8,373 nucleotides of DNA from a virus (IMGVR_UViG_2671180432_000009), one strand, 5' to 3'; numbered from the stretch's first letter, positions 1 through 8,373 are shown. Translations and numbers: made by a program. Notes: generated by a model not told the origin, from the letters alone.

Positions 1-72
1 GGGAAAAATATCATCAGATGGCTGCTTAAAAAAAGAACAAATGGTAGTGTCCGCTATTGCCAGTACACCTCA
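1..72. repeat. Left terminal inverted repeat: 72 bp identical to the reverse complement of 8302..8373
   Basis: Manual reverse-complement of 8302..8373 matches 1..72 exactly; identity ends at position 73 (g versus t). Contains the upstream region and first 10 codons (MVVSAIASTP) of the gene at 8103..8333, here followed by a 21-codon remnant ORF (41..106). Confidence 0.9.
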
Positions 73-81
73 GGATAGCGG

Positions 82-253
82 TCATGTGATGCCGGTTTCC
101 CGGTAACTCAGCACCGGTATCTGAGTCAACGTTTTCTCTACTGGGTCATTTCCGATACGCCCTGCCTGCTGACAGGCTTTCATCACATCTGAAAATATAG
201 CACCCTGACTGATACTGTAGTACCTAAGGTTCCAGAAACTGTGATGTATCCGG
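82..253 (-). CDS. Hypothetical protein, C-terminal 57 codons only (...SDVMKACQQAGRIGNDPVEKTLTQIPVLSYRETGIT*); 5' part lies in the N-run
   Basis: Longest open frame on the minus strand between the N-run and TGA at 84..82; contains 3 ATA and 1 AGG codon. No recognisable family. True start and frame across the N-run unknown. Confidence 0.35.
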
Positions 254-470
254 NNNNNNNNNNNNNNNNNNNNNNNNNNNNNNNNNNNNNNNNNNNNNNN
301 NNNNNNNNNNNNNNNNNNNNNNNNNNNNNNNNNNNNNNNNNNNNNNNNNNNNNNNNNNNNNNNNNNNNNNNNNNNNNNNNNNNNNNNNNNNNNNNNNNNN
401 NNNNNNNNNNNNNNNNNNNNNNNNNNNNNNNNNNNNNNNNNNNNNNNNNNNNNNNNNNNNNNNNNNNNNN
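254..470. other. Run of 217 N (unresolved or masked sequence)
   Basis: Directly visible; ORFs drawn through it in the six-frame track are artefacts of N translation. Confidence 1.
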
Positions 471-734
471 CCATGGTTCTTTCCACCATCTGAAAAATAA
501 TTCTTTAAAATACCTGACATGTAATACAGAAAAAACACAAAACCATACCTTAAATAAAAACCTGATTATCAAGCAGATATGCATGGATAAACTACAAGAC
601 GAGATATAAACCACCCTGCATTTAAATAAACAATAAACAACATCAGAAAAATAATTCTGCTCTATGGTTTACATTCAAAAATATCATTTATACTTTTCAG
701 AACATCACCAGCAAGGCATAAACAAGGAAACTAA

Positions 735-1070
735 ATGAAGTGGATTGTGATTGATACAGTTATCCAGCCATCATGCGGAATATCTTTTTCAGTCATATGG
801 AGTAAAATAAAATTAATAATCTGGTATCAATCGGATGCTTTCTTACCTCCTGAAAGTATATTTACACTGACTCACACAGGCATCATGCTCAATAACAAAG
901 TGCTACCTGTAACCATTTACAACGTAGTACCATTCAATAAAACATTCTGGAATTCAATCAAAAATAGCCAGGAATGCCCTACAAATACAGATAACGTATT
1001 GAATGAATGCTTTAATAACCGTTGCACTCTGCAAATATGTCCTTATGGACTAAAACAACAAAGTCCATAA
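735..1070 (+). CDS. Hypothetical protein, 111 aa, in an AT-rich island (possible moron gene)
   Basis: Only ORF over 60 codons in the AT-rich stretch 480..1100, where stop codons are frequent by chance. AAGGA Shine-Dalgarno about 7 nt upstream of ATG 735. 6 of 111 codons are ATA. Five Cys in the C-terminal half. No family recognised. Confidence 0.45.
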
Positions 1071-1104
1071 GGAGTTTACTCACATCTGACAAAATCAATA
1101 TAAA

Positions 1105-1126
1105 CAGCCCCTCCGGAGAGGGGCTG
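1105..1126 (-). terminator. Stem-loop (9-bp stem CAGCCCCTC/GAGGGGCTG, 4-nt loop); probable intrinsic terminator for the minus-strand cargo operon
   Basis: On the minus strand the hairpin is followed by TTTATATTGATTTTG; it lies 76 nt past the stop of the ORF ending at 1202 and between convergent ORFs. Confidence 0.4.
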
Positions 1127-1201
1127 GAGAGTGGCGCTATGTGCCATTGCATGGTGCCGGGTGCCTCCCGGTGAATTCAGTACCAGCACCTGAATCCGCG
1201 A

Positions 1202-1373
1202 TTATCCCATATACCTACTCGCTGATTGCCCCTCCGCACAGGGGGATTCACCATGCCAGTTTCTTTTAACAAACTCCCCGCAAAACAGACAACTGTCAAC
1301 CGTCTGAATTGTGAAGTATTTAAAAATTTCTCCCGCTAACTGATACCCGGCTAACAGTCTGGCGTTTTCTTTT
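1202..1373 (-). CDS. Hypothetical protein, C-terminal 56 codons visible (...KENARLLAGYQLAGEIFKYFTIQTVDSCLFCGEFVKRNWHGESPCAEGQSASRYMG*); interrupted by N-run
   Basis: Open frame from the N-run to TAA at 1204..1202; all three Arg codons are AGA/AGG. A possible N-terminus (MIAYCFCEWHCSSRIMSVLADGVLVA) at 1687..1610 cannot be linked in frame because of the N-run. Confidence 0.4.
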
Positions 1374-1609
1374 NNNNNNNNNNNNNNNNNNNNNNNNNNN
1401 NNNNNNNNNNNNNNNNNNNNNNNNNNNNNNNNNNNNNNNNNNNNNNNNNNNNNNNNNNNNNNNNNNNNNNNNNNNNNNNNNNNNNNNNNNNNNNNNNNNN
1501 NNNNNNNNNNNNNNNNNNNNNNNNNNNNNNNNNNNNNNNNNNNNNNNNNNNNNNNNNNNNNNNNNNNNNNNNNNNNNNNNNNNNNNNNNNNNNNNNNNNN
1601 NNNNNNNNN
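1374..1609. other. Run of 236 N (unresolved or masked sequence)
   Basis: Directly visible. Confidence 1.
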
Positions 1610-1722
1610 CGCCACCAGCACACCGTCAGCCAGCACTGACATTATCCGGCTGCTGCAATGCCATTCACAAAAACAGTAAGCAATCACTTTTTACCGTAAC
1701 AGGTGATAATCCAGATATGTAT

Positions 1723-2076
1723 CTACCCCAGATGAGTAATCCGAAGTTCATCCATACCACAGGTCCTGGCTATTCTGTTGTACTCCTGAACAAGAGCAAA
1801 TAATTCTGAATTAGCAACCATGAACTCATCGCAAACCCTCTGTATAGCATCACTATTCAGAATAATAACGTCTCTTCCCGAAAGACGATCAGGAGTACAG
1901 AACAAAACTGTCAAACGGCTGAAGGCCTTTGCTCGTGCTGCATTGACTATATCAATACGCTGCCTAAGGATGAAACACCCCGACGCCTCATCAATATTCA
2001 CTCTACCCACACCATATGAATGATAAATATTTAATGCTGAAAAAACCATTAGACCGTATAACAAACACTCAATCAA
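1723..2076 (-). CDS. Hypothetical protein, 117 aa from TTG 2076 (108 aa if ATG 2049 is the start)
   Basis: Six-frame ORF; first gene after the tRNA-Arg-like gene in the late direction. 3 AGA, 3 AGG and 3 ATA codons in 117. No clear Shine-Dalgarno at either start. No family recognised. Confidence 0.45.
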   Translation of the reverse strand: MIECLLYGLMVFSALNIYHSYGVGRVNIDEASGCFILRQRIDIVNAARAKAFSRLTVLFCTPDRLSGRDVIILNSDAIQRVCDEFMVANSELFALVQEYNRIARTCGMDELRITHLG

Positions 2077-2186
2077 TACTTAACAGAACTTTTATTTTTG
2101 ACAAACATAAAATATTTTCAACAATATCCTGAGCCAGGTATATTTCAGTATAAGGCTCTGCCGGAAGGAATCTGGAAGAATGAATA

Positions 2187-2262
2187 TGGCGCGCTGTACT
2201 GGATTCGAACCAGTGACCGATTGCTTAGAAGGCAATTGCTCTGTCCGGTGAGCTAAAGGGCC
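2187..2262 (-). tRNA. tRNA-Arg(UCU)-like gene, 76 nt; acceptor stem pairs at only 3 of 7 positions (possible pseudo or hybrid tRNA)
   Basis: Minus-strand read GGCCCTT-TA-GCTC-ACCGGACA-GAGC-A-ATTGC-CTTCTAA-GCAAT-CGGTC-ACTGG-TTCGAAT-CCAGT-ACAGCGC-G-CCA. D, anticodon (UCU) and T arms are canonical; 5' GGCCCTT does not pair with 3' ACAGCGC. Confidence 0.6.
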
Positions 2263-2271
2263 GGGAGCAGA

Positions 2272-2300
2272 ATAATAACGGTCCGTAATTAATTCCGCAA
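2272..2300 (-). promoter_or_regulatory. Putative sigma70 promoter for the tRNA-Arg-like gene
   Basis: Minus strand: -35 TTGCGG (2300..2295), 17-nt spacer, -10 TATTAT (2277..2272), about 10 nt upstream of the tRNA 5' end; homologous to the tRNA-Ile upstream region. Confidence 0.35.
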
Positions 2301-2325
2301 TAAAAAACCCGCTCGGCGGCGGGTT
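2300..2325 (-). terminator. Intrinsic terminator (tR'-like), copy 1
   Basis: Minus strand AACCCGC-CGCCGA-GCGGGTT followed by TTTTAT; identical to the copy at 4196..4221. Confidence 0.6.
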
Positions 2326-2372
2326 GTAGAAACTCTTCTAACGTCAGGCATAAAACGCCCATAGTTATGACG

Positions 2373-2400
2373 AATTTACCACAGATTCCGGAAAAATCAA
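2373..2400 (-). promoter_or_regulatory. pR'-like promoter, copy 1
   Basis: Minus strand: -35 TTGATT (2400..2395), 16-nt spacer, TGG-TAAATT extended -10 (2378..2373); identical to the copy just past the Q stop. Confidence 0.4.
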
Positions 2401-2417
2401 CCTAGTTACCTTTTTTA

Positions 2418-2607
2418 NNNNNNNNNNNNNNNNNNNNNNNNNNNNNNNNNNNNNNNNNNNNNNNNNNNNNNNNNNNNNNNNNNNNNNNNNNNNNNNNNNN
2501 NNNNNNNNNNNNNNNNNNNNNNNNNNNNNNNNNNNNNNNNNNNNNNNNNNNNNNNNNNNNNNNNNNNNNNNNNNNNNNNNNNNNNNNNNNNNNNNNNNNN
2601 NNNNNNN
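2418..2607. other. Run of 190 N (unresolved or masked sequence)
   Basis: Directly visible; lies between the repeat copy and the tRNA-Ile 3' end. Confidence 1.
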
Positions 2608-2615
2608 GTTTGTGA

Positions 2616-2691
2616 TGGTGGCCCTTGCTGGATTTGAACCAGCGACCTGGCGATTATGAGTCGCTCGCTCTCACCACTGAGCTAAAGGGCC
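2616..2691 (-). tRNA. tRNA with CAU anticodon, tRNA-Ile2 (lysidine) type
   Basis: Minus-strand read GGCCCTT-TA-GCTC-AGTGGTGA-GAGC-G-AGCGA-CTCATAA-TCGCC-AGGTC-GCTGG-TTCAAAT-CCAGC-AAGGGCC-A-CCA. Acceptor pairs 7 of 7; one A-C mismatch at the top of the anticodon stem. Closely resembles E. coli ileX and phage ileZ as recalled. Confidence 0.85.
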
Positions 2692-2731: not shown

Positions 2732-3729
2732 TCATCCGTTCTGGCTGACTAAATCCTGTACTTCCCGAACCGTCTGCTCAAAACGTTCAGTCTCCAGCTC
2801 AACGCCAATTGCACGACGCCCGAGCGCCAGTGCCGCTTTCACTGTCGAACCCAACCCCATGAAAAAATCTGCAATCAGGTCACCCGGACGACTGCTAGCG
2901 CTGATTATCTGCTGCAGCATTTCTGCCGGTTTTTCGCACGGATGTTTCCCGGGATAGAACTGCACCGGTTTATGCGTCCACACATCGGTATACGGCACCT
3001 GCACCGTCACGCCAAAATACCGCCGCAGATGTTTATATTCACTCAGCAGCTCCGCATACTGCCGGTTCAGTGAGGTATACGTATCCACCAGCTGGTGGTG
3101 GAGCTTTTCCAGTTCACCACGCCGATGCTTCTCTTCTGCCACCCGGGCAAACAGCGCCTGTAATTTCAGATAATCGCTTTCATTCGGCAACTGCCACTGA
3201 CCGGCACTGAACCAGTGCGACACCATGTTTTTCTTTCCTGTGGCATCTGCAATCTGTTTTGCCGTTATCCCCAGGGCAGCTCGCGCATCACGAAAGTAAN
3301 NNNNNNNNNNNNNNNNNNNNNNNNNNNNNNNNNNNNNNNNNNNNNNNNNNNNNNNNNNNNNNNNNNNNNNNNNNNNNNNNNNNNNNNNNNNNNNNNNNNN
3401 NNNNNNNNNNNNNNNNNNNNNNNNNNNNNNNNNNNNNNNNNNNNNNNNNNNNNNNNNNNNNNNNNNNNNNNNNNNNNNNNNNNNNNNNNNNNNNNNNNNN
3501 NNNNNNNNNNNNGTTTCAGCACCCGCCAGAACTGCGCCAGACACTGGTCCAGCCACTTCAGGTAATCATCGTCGCCCTTCCACTGGTTATCCCAGCCCTC
3601 AGGCTTCACTTTAAAGTACGGCGGGTCCGTGACTATCAGGTCAACAGAATTTTCGGGTAACGACCGGATAAATTCCAGGCAGTCGGCGTTGATTAACTCA
3701 CAACTGGATATTTTTACAGTATTAAGCAT
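2732..3729 (-). CDS. DNA methyltransferase, beta-class N6-adenine (or N4-cytosine) type; middle part lost in the N-run 3300..3512
   Basis: N-terminal segment (3729..3513) has motif IV DPPY (LIVTDPPYF); C-terminal segment (3299..2732) has motif I FxGxG (DFFMGLGST). The order IV then I indicates beta class. The two segments are in different frames if the N-run length is taken literally. Confidence 0.8.
3300..3512. other. Run of 213 N (unresolved or masked sequence) inside the methyltransferase gene
   Basis: Directly visible. Confidence 1.
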
Positions 3730-3821
3730 GGATCATTAAGCCTGTCTCTGATAGGCTCATTCTGCTTTTGCGCAAAGCAGTGGGCCTGAGGTTTGCTTGT
3801 GAACCCAACGCATGAGCAGAT

Positions 3822-3852
3822 GGCTGGTGGGTGCCCCTAACACCCACCAGCC
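3822..3852. promoter_or_regulatory. Perfect 12-bp inverted repeat (GGCTGGTGGGTG / CACCCACCAGCC, 7-nt loop) upstream of the methyltransferase start
   Basis: Seen directly; no U-tract on either strand, so not a classic intrinsic terminator. Candidate operator or RNA structural element about 90 nt upstream of ATG 3729. Confidence 0.5.
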
Positions 3853-3867
3853 GCCCATTTACCACAA

Positions 3868-3893
3868 ATAAAAAAGCCTTCACTGCGGAAGGC
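3868..3893 (-). terminator. Intrinsic terminator overlapping the stop codon of the small HTH gene
   Basis: Minus strand GCCTTC-CGCAGT-GAAGGC followed by TTTTTTATTT; the TGA stop (3882..3880) sits in the loop and stem. Confidence 0.55.
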
Positions 3894-4077
3894 GTCTGTA
3901 ACAACCGAACTGATAGTCTGCCAGACCCGCCATAACCAGCTGGGTCAGTATTAACTGGCAGCGTTCGCGTGAAAGGTAAGTATTCTGCGCTATCTCCCCG
4001 ACTGTCGCCGGTTCGGTAACGCTTAATTCATTAAACACCACTCTGGCGGTTTCTGTCATATCCTGCTGTTTTAGCAT
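3880..4077 (-). CDS. Small DNA-binding protein with a helix-turn-helix-like segment, 65 aa
   Basis: AAGGA Shine-Dalgarno 6-7 nt upstream of ATG 4077; the segment TVGEIAQNTYLSRERCQLILTQLVMAGL resembles an HTH recognition region. Family not recognised. Confidence 0.5.
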   Translation of the reverse strand: MLKQQDMTETARVVFNELSVTEPATVGEIAQNTYLSRERCQLILTQLVMAGLADYQFGCYRRLPQ

Positions 4078-4195
4078 GTCTTTTCCTTTTCCGGTTAACG
4101 TGACACACCAATAACTCTTGTCGAAAAAGCCAGCAAGCTGAAAGACAGGTATTCACCGCCACCAGCGCGTTTACTGTACTGACGCGATTTCAGTC

Positions 4196-4221
4196 ATAAA
4201 AAACCCGCTCGGCGGCGGGTT
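4196..4221 (-). terminator. Intrinsic terminator (tR'-like), copy 2, about 80 nt past the Q stop
   Basis: Minus strand AACCCGC-CGCCGA-GCGGGTT followed by TTTTATG. Confidence 0.6.
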
Positions 4222-4268
4222 GTAGAAACTCTTCTAACGTCAGGCATAAAACGCCCATCGTTATGACG

Positions 4269-4296
4269 AATTTACCACAGATTCCGGAAAAATCAA
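4269..4296 (-). promoter_or_regulatory. Late promoter (pR'-like) immediately downstream of Q, copy 2
   Basis: Minus strand: -35 TTGATT (4296..4291), 16-nt spacer, TGG-TAAATT extended -10 (4274..4269); the predicted transcript to the terminator is about 65 nt, as expected for a short Q-modifiable pR' transcript. Confidence 0.45.
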
Positions 4297-4301
4297 CCTT
4301 G

Positions 4302-5123
4302 TTACCTAGTTACCTTTTTTAACTGCCGCTCAGCCCATGCTTCTTCAATATCAAACCGGGTCACCAGCGCATCATAAAATTTCTTAACTGTTTTTTCCCA
4401 TGACGCGCGTGTTATCTGGTTTGTCACCTCGCATATAGCATTAAATGCCTCCGTTGATGGTAGTCTTTCATAGCCACGACCACCACAACGCTGGCAGTCT
4501 CTGATAACAGGCATACCACGTTTTACCGACTCTTCACGATGAATGGCGACACCACGCCCACGGCAATCCTTACAGGCGGTGGAAACCTCACCCTTTCCGC
4601 CACACTCCGGACAGGCAACTTTTACCACCTCCCTGACTTTTTTCCATTCTTCCCAGTAAGACGGATACACACCTTTCGTACACTTTGCCCATACCGGCGG
4701 CTTACCATCCGGATACTGGACCTTGTTTGTAAAAACTACGCTTTCAATAAATTTTTCCCCATAGCAACAAGGGCACTGCTTTTTACTCGCTGCGCTGCGG
4801 GCATAATCCTCAAAAGCGTACGAAGCCATAATGCGCATCACTACCGGTTTTATTTCTGCCGGAAGTTTTCTCAACGCCGCCACACGATCGCACCGACTGA
4901 GTGCATAATCTGCCAGTAATTCTGTTGCCCGCGCCCTGTCATTCATACTGATGCCCATTTTCCCCAGGAACGCAGAAAACCCCATCTCAGCCCGATTCTG
5001 TGTCATGCCCTGCGCGGCCATCACATCAGTGATACTCAGCGCATCTTTCGACGTTGAGGCCGATGCATCAGTCAGGCCGGGGGATTTTGGGGAGTAGTAT
5101 TTCGGTAAATCTTCCAGTTTCAT
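4302..5123 (-). CDS. Late-gene antiterminator Q-like protein, 273 aa, with four DnaJ-type CxxCxGxG repeats
   Basis: Position is diagnostic: directly downstream of rusA with an ATGA start/stop overlap and directly upstream of the promoter/terminator unit and tRNA genes. Size fits the long Qin-type Q proteins as recalled. Repeats CPCCYGEK, CPECGGKG, CKDCRGRG, CQRCGGRG are visible. Confidence 0.6.
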   Translation of the reverse strand: MKLEDLPKYYSPKSPGLTDASASTSKDALSITDVMAAQGMTQNRAEMGFSAFLGKMGISMNDRARATELLADYALSRCDRVAALRKLPAEIKPVVMRIMASYAFEDYARSAASKKQCPCCYGEKFIESVVFTNKVQYPDGKPPVWAKCTKGVYPSYWEEWKKVREVVKVACPECGGKGEVSTACKDCRGRGVAIHREESVKRGMPVIRDCQRCGGRGYERLPSTEAFNAICEVTNQITRASWEKTVKKFYDALVTRFDIEEAWAERQLKKVTR

Positions 5124-7039: not shown

Positions 7040-7068
7040 ATAAAAACAAAAACCCGCCGAAGCGGGTT
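7040..7068 (-). terminator. Intrinsic terminator of the hok/mok transcript
   Basis: Minus strand AACCCGC-TTCG-GCGGGTT followed by TTTTGTTTTTATTTT; about 70 nt past the hok stop. Confidence 0.7.
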
Positions 7069-7136
7069 AAGTGTGGGTGCATTGAGGATGCCTGACCCAT
7101 CAGAGGTGGCGAGGGATTTCTCCCCCGCCTGGTCTC

Positions 7137-7292
7137 TTACTCCTCAGGTTCGTAAGCTGTGAAGACAGCGACCTCCGTCTGGCCGGTTCGAATTCGTACC
7201 TCGCAGAGGTCTTTCCTCGTTACCAGTGCCGTCACTATGACGGTTAAACAGATGACGATCAGGGCGATTAACATCGCCTTTTGCTGCTTCAT
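7137..7292 (-). CDS. hok: Hok/Gef-family type I toxin, 51 aa
   Basis: MKQQKAMLIALIVICLTVIVTALVTRKDLCEVRIRTGQTEVAVFTAYEPEE closely matches the Hok/Gef family (HokD/RelF-like as recalled); AGGAG Shine-Dalgarno upstream. Confidence 0.85.
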   Translation of the reverse strand: MKQQKAMLIALIVICLTVIVTALVTRKDLCEVRIRTGQTEVAVFTAYEPEE

Positions 7293-7349
7293 AGCCTGCT
7301 TCTCCTTGCCTTTCGGCACGTAAGAGGCTAACCTAGATTTGCCGTTCAT
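7137..7349 (-). CDS. mok: Mok-like in-frame N-terminally extended reading frame (70 aa) overlapping hok
   Basis: ORF starts 19 codons upstream of hok in the same frame, as in chromosomal mokC/hokC loci as recalled. Confidence 0.55.
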   Translation of the reverse strand: MNGKSRLASYVPKGKEKQAMKQQKAMLIALIVICLTVIVTALVTRKDLCEVRIRTGQTEVAVFTAYEPEE

Positions 7350-7400
7350 AGATTGAGCCTCAGATTAATGTTAAGCGTCTTGCCGGACGCGTAATGTTAA
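7295..7400 (+). ncRNA. Expected position of a Sok-like antisense RNA opposite the mok translation-initiation region (boundaries not resolved)
   Basis: Inference from hok/sok architecture only; a weak plus-strand hairpin GCGTC-TTGCCG-GACGC lies at about 7364..7379. No promoter identified with confidence. Confidence 0.25.
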
Positions 7401-7468
7401 CTGGGGCTTTTCTCTATCTGCCTTTTGGTGTTCATGCCTGAGACAGATAGCCTCAAGCACCCGCTGCA

Positions 7469-7587: not shown

Positions 7588-7928
7588 CGTAAAATATCCT
7601 CCACGCTTATCAGTCCGTTCCGCTCCAGATAACTCATCGCCTTATCCGGTAATTTGCAGTCTGGCTTCGCTTTCCTCAGTTGCCAGGTTAACTGCTTTAC
7701 CAGCATGGTTAACTCATCGACCAGACGCTGATATCCCACTGGTTTGTATTCATGCAATTTACCGGCTGGCTCTGCTGCCAGCGATACCAGTGCGATTTCC
7801 AGAACAGCAATATCCATCTTATATGTGCGGATGATGTCATGGTCGATTGTGCCCGGTATGCACAGTCTCTGTGCTTCAATAGTCTCCTCTGCGTGAGCTA
7901 TTAACTGCTCTCTGGTAAAAGTCGTCAT
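7584..7928 (-). CDS. Hypothetical protein, 114 aa
   Basis: Six-frame ORF; start overlaps the stop of the upstream 55-aa ORF (ATGA); shares an N-terminal MTTxT motif and an IAL-SL-AEP motif with that ORF. Confidence 0.6.
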
Positions 7929-8092
7929 GCCGTAGCCCCTTCTTGATATTTTTCAAACCAGAACACAACCGGCTCTGCTTCCAGCGATGCCAGCGCAATC
8001 CGTGCCAGTTCCATTTGTTCACCACGGGTAAGCCCGTTTTCAAGCGGGTTTTTAATGAACAATTCAATACGTTCTTTGGTAATAGTGGTCAT
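7925..8092 (-). CDS. Hypothetical protein, 55 aa ([55 protein letters not shown])
   Basis: Absent from the ORF track; strong AAGGAG Shine-Dalgarno 6 nt upstream of ATG 8092; stop overlaps the next start. Preferred over the 63-aa ORF at 7876..8067, which is in another frame. Confidence 0.5.
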
Positions 8093-8102
8093 GTGTTACT
8101 CC

Positions 8103-8333
8103 TTAACCCGCAGTGCTTTCAACTGATGAGGGGAACAAAATCTTTTCATCAAACCCTGCATTCATATCATGAACAGCAACACACCAATCCATCGACGAAC
8201 GATTATCAAGAGCCTCCATGATTTCATCCATGCGGCGTAGGTCATACAGGTAAATGCTTTTATCGCCAATGGTGTAAAAGCCAATTTTTTTCGGTGATGG
8301 ATGAGGTGTACTGGCAATAGCGGACACTACCAT
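8103..8333 (-). CDS. Hypothetical protein, 76 aa
   Basis: Six-frame ORF; first gene of the coupled block; its first 10 codons and upstream region lie in the right inverted repeat. Weak Shine-Dalgarno. Confidence 0.5.
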   Translation of the reverse strand: MVVSAIASTPHPSPKKIGFYTIGDKSIYLYDLRRMDEIMEALDNRSSMDWCVAVHDMNAGFDEKILFPSSVESTAG

Positions 8334-8373
8334 TTGTTCTTTTTTTAAGCAGCCATCTGATGATATTTTTCCC
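8302..8373. repeat. Right terminal inverted repeat (partner of 1..72)
   Basis: See 1..72. Confidence 0.9.

Follow-up and report, generated by a model that had tools for sequence, protein, structure and literature searches.

Shiga toxin (Stx) phages such as 933W carry a cluster of transfer RNA (tRNA) genes, ileZ-argN-argO, upstream of stx. Compensation for rare codons by phage tRNAs is an established idea, and for this particular cluster it was reportedly put forward by Plunkett et al. in 1999. In this study, we analysed a stretch of viral DNA of 8,373 nucleotides (nt; IMGVR_UViG_2671180432_000009, below called the window), in which a first-pass annotation had noticed four open reading frames (ORFs), 82..253, 735..1070, 1202..1373 and 1723..2076, located downstream of phage tRNA genes in the position of stx. 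The ATA, AGA and AGG codons of these ORFs were considered to match tRNA-Ile(CAU) and tRNA-Arg(UCU), and the match was taken as support for the ORFs being real, horizontally acquired moron genes of unknown function, possibly acting as a toxin, an effector or in defence.

Our analysis indicates that the segment 72-2691 is likely the accessory ("moron") slot of a phi-potB-type lambdoid Escherichia coli prophage, lying between the lysis cassette and the module that comprises the Q antiterminator and the tRNAs; this is a joint estimate, which covers the identity of the slot, the list of its elements and the origin of the rare codons as a by-product of low G+C content. In the best-supported account of the region, its components are already known (iraL, STnc100, the DUF3927 gene, phage tRNAs), and one real, uncharacterised phage gene is added to them. 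This is the phrog_2873-family gene, called X below (window copy 1723..2001(-); X92 denotes its 92-amino-acid (aa) reading). The gene order bore out the placement in the stx position of Stx phages, behind Q and the tRNAs, and the assumed horizontal acquisition agrees with the AT-rich, mosaic, accessory character of this DNA.

The codon counts reported for all four ORFs proved exact on recount. There are three AGA, three AGG (together 6 of 11 Arg codons) and three ATA in the 117 codons of ORF 1723..2076(-), while the three Arg codons of frame 1202..1372(-) are AGA, AGA and AGG; six ATA (6/13 Ile) fall within the 111 codons of 735..1070(+), and three ATA and one AGG within the 56 codons of frame 82..252(-). 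In K-12-like usage, AGA and AGG (AGR) make up about 6% of Arg codons, and ATA about 8% of Ile codons. Relative to these fractions the excess is about 10-fold, with P=1.7e-5 for AGR in the 117-codon ORF and P=2.7e-4 for ATA in 735..1070, so that the frequencies are indeed well above typical E. coli usage.

However, this enrichment relative to the host does not extend beyond what base composition predicts. When the synonymous choice was predicted from each gene's own base frequencies, with which sequence shuffles agree, the expected fractions in the 117-codon ORF were 0.32 for ATA (3/11 observed) and 0.44 for AGR (6/11 observed), and 0.43 for ATA in 735..1070 (6/13 observed; P>0.3 in each case). 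X92 has 8 rare codons versus 7.1 expected from composition. Neither was any specificity to the coding frame found: ATA, AGA and AGG together occur at 26-99 per 1000 triplets over all six frames of segments 72-253, 471-1373 and 1610-2186, and at 54-77 per 1000 in the claimed ORFs. The G+C content is 35-44% in the cargo genes and about 50% in the upstream genes, and the rare-codon frequency drops as gene G+C rises (Spearman rho -0.58, P=0.0008, for 30 genes of the window and two related loci). The upstream gene Q likewise uses AGR for 6 of its 21 Arg codons. Because non-coding frames carry these triplets equally, the pattern cannot support the reality of the ORFs; occurring in every frame, coding or not, it therefore neither validates them nor demonstrates tuning to the neighbouring tRNAs. 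The high content of ATA, AGA and AGG is most likely a by-product of low G+C in horizontally shuffled DNA devoid of host-like codon bias.

Both expected tRNA genes were found by ARAGORN on the minus strand. The tRNA(CAU) has an intact cloverleaf, reaches 72.5 bits with the Rfam tRNA model, and its folding gives z=-4.03. ARAGORN, which relies on the anticodon alone, calls it Met; its orthologues in E. coli 042, ATCC 11775 and CFT073 (loci L001, L002 and L013, respectively) are labelled tRNA-Ile by the NCBI Prokaryotic Genome Annotation Pipeline (PGAP), and judging by this orthologue annotation it would be a tRNA-Ile of the Ile2 type, reading ATA. The tRNA-Arg(UCU) gene turned out to be a chimera. 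It shares the body and the 3' acceptor strand with the intact 042 gene, and the 5' acceptor strand, together with the upstream DNA, with tRNA-Ile. In an alignment with the 042, ATCC 11775 and CFT073 tRNAs, the 5' strand reads GGCCCUU where the orthologues have GCGUUGU, and one G is missing from the D-loop. Three of seven acceptor pairs form in register, and five of seven in the shifted register adopted by ARAGORN, which shortens the linker; no seven-base-pair acceptor stem compatible with the standard 8-9 linker and D-loop was found. The Rfam score amounts to 46.5 bits (gathering score 29), as compared to 62-70 for the intact orthologues, and the folding is no better than that of shuffled sequences (z=0.02, versus z=-1.56 for the intact copy).

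In the 12 best-matching complete genomes listed, the junction of the chimera occurs only as two pieces lying about 177 nt further apart. Apparently, the fusion of tRNA-Ile and tRNA-Arg arose by deletion between D-arm sequences shared by both genes. Having a 5' strand derived from tRNA-Ile and a broken acceptor stem, the tRNA that was said to match the AGA and AGG codons of the cargo is probably defective. Intact tRNA-Arg genes could be hidden in a run of N (N-run) at 2418-2607. At other loci (L011, L016-L019), tRNA genes also recur between Q and the X-family gene; they differ among genera (Thr, CAU, Gly, Asn, and one with an odd anticodon loop), and the slot seems to collect tRNAs in general.

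As to the individual ORFs, the supposedly unrecognised 735..1070(+) encodes a characterised protein. It matches the NCBIfam model NF007393 (IraM) over residues 1-110 with 162 bits (cut-off 121), and 110 of its 111 residues are identical to WP_000871291.1 from the CFT073 prophage adjoining potC/potD, the single substitution being L74S. Identity between IraL and IraM was published as 58.9%, and the subgroups were delimited by at least 95% identity to CFT073 iraL and about 59% to K-12 IraM (PMC4045071). The window protein, 61% identical to K-12 IraM, falls by these measures into the IraL rather than the IraM subgroup. It was shown experimentally that CFT073 IraL is an RssB anti-adaptor stabilising RpoS; the gene was reported to have its own transcription start site, and the prophage locus was called the potB island (PMC4045071). 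ORF 735..1070(+) is iraL, and RssB binding and RpoS stabilisation would be carried over from the CFT073 protein. The tRNAs and the late operon are encoded on the other strand.

The frame 1202..1373(-) overlaps a small RNA (sRNA) gene. Rfam family RF02076 (STnc100) is matched at 1096..1285(-) with 133.6 bits (gathering score 47) over the whole model (1-206 of 206), and the terminator hairpin 1126..1105, of 9 pairs (7 G-C), precedes a T-rich tail. The model also matches the orthologues in 042, CFT073 and phage mEp460_ev081. STnc100 was described as a prophage sRNA related to PasD (bioRxiv 10.64898/2026.05.13.724894). With its full-length match, terminator and usual prophage late-region context, all of them shared with the family, this element is an STnc100 gene, and its expression as a discrete small RNA is predicted. 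Of frame 1202..1373, 84 nt belong to STnc100 and 65 nt are intergenic, and the remaining 23 nt are the end of the DUF3927 gene, read in another frame; two of the three Arg codons of 1202..1373 (1262-1264 and 1214-1216) are inside STnc100. It has no Pfam or NCBIfam match, and the same frame in ATCC 11775 runs into a tRNA-Arg gene. The ORF was rejected as spurious, and it cannot be counted among moron genes.

ORF 1723..2076(-), on the other hand, is a real gene of the phrog_2873 family, of unknown function. It matches the family profile with E=5.6e-58, residues 1-92 of X aligning with profile positions 17-108 of 108, and relatives of 91-110 aa were found by exhaustive HMMER and profile searches in E. 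coli, Citrobacter, Salmonella, Serratia, Morganella and Xenorhabdus. The start of X is probably GTG 2001, 25 codons after the mechanical start. The family start aligns with this codon, homologues have in-frame stops just upstream of it, and an AGGAG motif precedes the GTG by 4 nt in the L006 homologue; the Shine-Dalgarno sequence before GTG 2001 in the window is weak. For the 92-aa reading AlphaFold predicted a helical hairpin (H3-34 and H50-81) with a predicted local distance difference test score (pLDDT) of 88.8. The 117-aa reading with an N-terminal extension was rejected: its pLDDT is 67.6, with residues 7-23 below 50, and the family starts and upstream stops favour GTG 2001.

The view that each of the four frames is a genuine moron gene, coding for a protein of unknown function, must be weighed against these findings. 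All four are open in the visible sequence, and a 55-aa version of the 82..253 frame is phrog_23557, called in some genomes. We nevertheless find this view extremely improbable, as 1202..1373 lies on other elements, and 82..253 bears no coding signature: the 27 differences from locus L014 (86% identical; the diverged version of the frame used for comparison was P0057) are spread evenly over codon positions (8/10/9), and the ratio of nonsynonymous to synonymous differences per site (pN/pS) is 0.60, as compared to 0.72 and 0.67 in the other two frames. Moreover, database versions of this frame have inconsistent N-termini and lengths, the start ATG of the 55-aa version is ATA in the window, and nothing is annotated under 82..253 in the complete genomes listed. 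The segment 72..253 is 100% identical to positions 4001-4182 of the ATCC 11775 locus, where STnc100 copies at 4180-4370 and 3693-3902 flank it; the layout of locus L015 is the same. At the opposite extreme, X itself could be spurious, an open frame in AT-rich leader DNA. This would explain why PGAP annotated no coding sequence for X in 042, CFT073 and the other complete genomes inspected, nor is there one in phage mEp460_ev081, and the absence of a Pfam or NCBIfam family and the weak Shine-Dalgarno sequence would agree with it. Such an explanation is very improbable, however, since homologues from five other genera, with identities as low as about 21%, keep the frame open and its length conserved. 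The ratio of nonsynonymous to synonymous substitution rates (dN/dS) is 0.32 over the 117-codon ORF (homologue with 56% protein and 72% DNA identity), and pN/pS is 0.37-0.43 over the ungapped 92-codon core, which has no stops. Other frames of this core have pN/pS near 1 and many stops, with the exception of the antisense frame sharing third positions (0.38-0.40, 2-3 stops). About 950 member sequences fall into clusters of 108-118 aa, and each shortened or disrupted cluster has 1-3 members; the confident structure prediction and the AGGAG motif in the L006 homologue also speak for a gene. The claim of four genes can thus be retained for 1723..2001/2076(-) and 735..1070(+) and abandoned for 1202..1373 and 82..253; for these latter two, what was found is a fragment without an intact frame or an ordinary conserved element, the outcome that the first-pass annotation had itself named as contradicting it.

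Another alternative concerns the codons and tRNAs, and assumes adaptive co-adaptation: tRNA-Ile(CAU) and tRNA-Arg(UCU) would be kept because the cargo is rich in ATA, AGA and AGG, with selection linking both. Several points weigh in its favour and against the compositional reading. The cargo genes contain 69 rare codons per 1000, as compared to 25 in the upstream prophage genes of the same window (Fisher P=0.003), and with this 2.7-fold excess a physiological contribution of the extra tRNAs is still conceivable. 042, CFT073 and phage mEp460_ev081 share the order Q, tRNA-Ile, tRNA-Arg, X. Some X homologues from loci without tRNA-Ile(CAU) or tRNA-Arg in the stretch fetched have fewer rare codons than composition predicts (L003, 3 versus 6.7; L011, 1 versus 3.6; L008, 2 versus 6.5), which is the direction predicted by the co-adaptation model. 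The compositional reading, together with the account of the slot, is also weakened by four N-runs (254-470, 1374-1609, 2418-2607 and 3300-3512), which hide about 860 positions and disagree in length with reference genomes, leaving unseen the middle of the DUF3927 gene, the sequence following tRNA-Ile and that left of iraL. Still, we consider co-adaptation unlikely. Codon use equals the compositional expectation, without frame specificity, and the tRNA-Arg(UCU) of the window is a chimera with a disrupted acceptor stem. iraL is located on the other strand, with a transcription start site of its own reported (PMC4045071), and K-12 iraM is at least as rich in ATA (8/18 Ile), with no tRNA gene among the annotated features of its locus. 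In the homologue comparison, which comprised seven loci only (composition expectations 3.6-7.1), three homologues are below expectation and one is not; among those without a tRNA-Ile(CAU) or tRNA-Arg gene in the stretch fetched, L018 has 7 rare codons in 96 and L006 has 5 in 92; with tRNA(CAU) present there are 4 in L016 and 8 in the window. Finally, the tRNAs of the slot differ between genera (Thr, Gly, Asn). Physiological help by tRNAs is possible, and the intact phage tRNA-Ile(CAU) may incidentally facilitate translation of ATA codons; the window provides no evidence for such help, and composition is the explanation that we prefer.

Searches for the function of X gave no fold, Pfam, NCBIfam, PADLOC or Protein Data Bank (PDB) match. 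PADLOC yielded no meaningful match, and Pfam and NCBIfam were empty for the 117- and 92-aa protein and for both fragments, so the suggested role in toxicity, effector activity or defence was left without support from PADLOC, Pfam, NCBIfam, PDB and fold searches. In the PDB profile search with the X family, the best candidate was GapR/UPF0335 (E=0.05 over 37 residues), which is not significant. This weak likeness of residues 5-41 of the X-family profile A6 to the DNA-clamping GapR/UPF0335 proteins may be treated as a lead only.

The position of X is conserved. The gene lies after Q and before the holin gene in E. coli, Citrobacter, Serratia and Morganella prophages and in mEp460_ev081, with a methylase gene, an AraC-like regulator gene or tRNAs as optional elements between Q and X; in several Enterobacterales genera no other protein-coding gene separates it from Q (or from these optional elements), and it occupies the slot of stx. 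Intact, unannotated copies are present at 22555-23053 of the CFT073 locus and at about 8049-8402 of the 042 locus. X might be an unrecognised late-phase factor, involved in lysis timing, host takeover or anti-defence, with TerB-like and DUF3927 partners, although we regard this as quite unlikely. A 34%-identical relative of X was observed at 5001-5276 of L008-L010, contigs with a Rep3-type replication gene (probably plasmids), where it adjoins tRNA-Thr and lies about 1.2 kb from a PapB-like regulator gene and a K88-like chaperone-usher fimbrial operon.

The features of the slot and its upstream context are collected in Table 1. Segment 471-2697 is 99% identical (megablast) to prophage DNA of E. 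coli 042, ST131 strains and many others, and the DNA stretch including the 117-codon ORF was found in 1,184 of 5,426 complete genomes (~22%). On the minus strand, the order is DUF968, rusA, Q, a terminator-bearing segment, the 65-aa ORF, the DNA methylase gene and tRNA(CAU), after which come a second copy of the Q end with the terminator segment, tRNA-Arg, and the cargo; beyond the cargo, 042, CFT073 and ATCC 11775 have a DUF1737 pseudogene and the holin and lysozyme genes. Both 042 and CFT073 carry the module Q, tRNA-Ile, tRNA-Arg, X, DUF3927, STnc100 at 99% identity, and phage mEp460_ev081 has it too. The minus-strand part of the slot contains a copy of the candidate late promoter and terminator, the chimeric tRNA-Arg, X, the DUF3927 gene and STnc100, and its plus-strand content is iraL, the gene for the RpoS-stabilising anti-adaptor. 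Judging from their position and the terminator hairpins, the minus-strand elements may be transcribed from a Q-dependent late promoter. The 042 orthologue of the DUF3927 gene (7881-8012 of its locus, 43 aa) matches PF13064 with 95.6 bits and belongs to phrog_1470, described as TciB-like; in the window, the first 26 and last 7 codons are visible, and these ends align to 042 at 99%.

Table 1. Coordinates of the features in the accessory slot of the window and in its upstream context
Feature	Position	Strand	Basis or remark
Spacer with unsupported frame 82..253	72..253	-	Between tandem STnc100 copies in other genomes
iraL, IraM-family RssB anti-adaptor gene	735..1070	+	NCBIfam NF007393, CFT073 identity
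STnc100 sRNA gene with intrinsic terminator (1105-1126)	1096..1285	-	Rfam RF02076
Spurious frame	1202..1373	-	Overlaps STnc100 and 3' end of DUF3927 gene
DUF3927 small-protein gene, split by N-run 1374-1609	1351..1687	-	042 orthologue
phrog_2873 gene (X), 92 aa from GTG 2001; mechanical ORF reaches TTG 2076	1723..2001	-	Profile, constraint
Chimeric tRNA-Arg(UCU), probably defective	2187..2261	-	ARAGORN, Rfam, alignment
Q 3' end copy 2 with candidate late promoter/terminator (PR'/tR'-like)	2293..2417	-	Repeat; cut by N-run 2418-2607
Intact tRNA(CAU)	2616..2691	-	ARAGORN, Rfam
DNA methyltransferase gene, contains N-run	2732-3729	-	Order as in ATCC 11775, L015
65-aa winged-helix-like ORF	3880-4077	-	Order as in ATCC 11775, L015
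PR'/tR'-like copy 1	4189-4307	-	Repeat
Antiterminator Q gene	4302-5123	-	Pfam Antiterm, 183.7 bits
Upstream context block (methyltransferase to Q)	2732..5123	-	Gene order matches ATCC 11775, L015

The N-runs behave like gaps of arbitrary length. The gap in the DUF3927 gene has 236 N as compared to 31 nt in 042, and that in the methylase gene 213 as compared to 274 nt in ATCC 11775, of which only 274 keeps the methylase in frame. As these lengths differ from those in the closest genomes, reading across the N-runs is unreliable, and the listed ORFs that span them were rejected as artefacts. One copy of STnc100 is visible in the window, in contrast to two tandem copies in ATCC 11775 and L015, between which the 72-253 spacer lies; it is a speculation that the second one may sit in N-run 254-470.

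Positions 2293-2411 form a direct repeat, 96% identical to 4189-4307, made up of the Q 3' end and the terminator-bearing late-leader segment, with terminator hairpins at 2306-2325 and 4202-4221; copy 2 lacks 10 nt that are present in copy 1 and in 042. Within 2293..2417 a candidate late promoter, TTGATT-N16-TAAATT, was read by eye; the promoter scan did not detect it. The window resembles a composite of two modules, one of the ATCC 11775 type (Q, the 65-aa ORF, methylase, tRNA-Ile) and one of the 042/CFT073 type (Q end, tRNAs, X, DUF3927, STnc100, iraL), joined within N-run 2418-2607. Its ends, 1-72 and 8302-8373, are a perfect 72-nt inverted repeat holding the first 32 nt and the upstream region of a 76-aa ORF, 8103..8333(-); similarity to 042 ends at 8300, and that to ATCC 11775 begins at 72. 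This repeat may be a real inverted duplication, an inversion breakpoint, or an assembly effect at a repeat. Elsewhere in the window there is a hok/sok-type toxin-antitoxin module (7137-7462), with a Hok-like 70-aa ORF at 7137..7349(-) and sok RNA at 7287..7462(-) (112.4 bits), and a sub-threshold isrK-like match at 7047-7128(-) (25.7 bits; gathering score 50).

The main value of these results is a caution. Rare codons beside phage tRNAs are to be expected from AT-rich mobile DNA and are unusable for gene calling; applied here, such a criterion would have turned an sRNA gene and a spacer into "cargo proteins". The slot that harbours stx in Stx phages is occupied by a known RpoS-stabilising anti-adaptor and a known prophage sRNA. 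The real gap is phrog_2873, a conserved and widely carried small gene which the standard pipeline left uncalled in every E. coli genome inspected.

When compared to the described systems, X of the window belongs to the same length class as the phrog_2873 family and lies in its conserved slot. Fuller cassettes of this family (L006 4142-6524; L011 5001-6548; L003 164-1485) consist of an AraC-like gene (phrog_1450), X, a TerB-like 'tellurite resistance' gene (phrog_632), DUF3927 (phrog_1470) and holin genes, whereas AraC-like and TerB-like genes are both missing from the visible sequence of the window. With the ileZ-argN-argO cluster of Stx phages, the window shares the position, behind Q and the late promoter and ahead of the cargo and lysis genes, and the specificities Ile-CAU and Arg-UCU; it differs in having no stx, in the Ile/Arg chimera that stands for Arg-UCU, and in cargo codons that reflect composition only. 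The full trio of Ile, Arg-UCG and Arg-UCU tRNAs is present in CFT073 and ATCC 11775. Between Q and the tRNA cluster, CFT073 carries IS200C and STnc490 RNA (21568-21691 of its locus), which are absent from the window. The iraL locus of CFT073 resembles that described here in Q, the tRNAs, DUF3927, STnc100, iraL on the opposite strand, the DUF1737 pseudogene and the holin gene, and the window differs from it by a rearranged upstream tRNA block and an inserted methyltransferase module.

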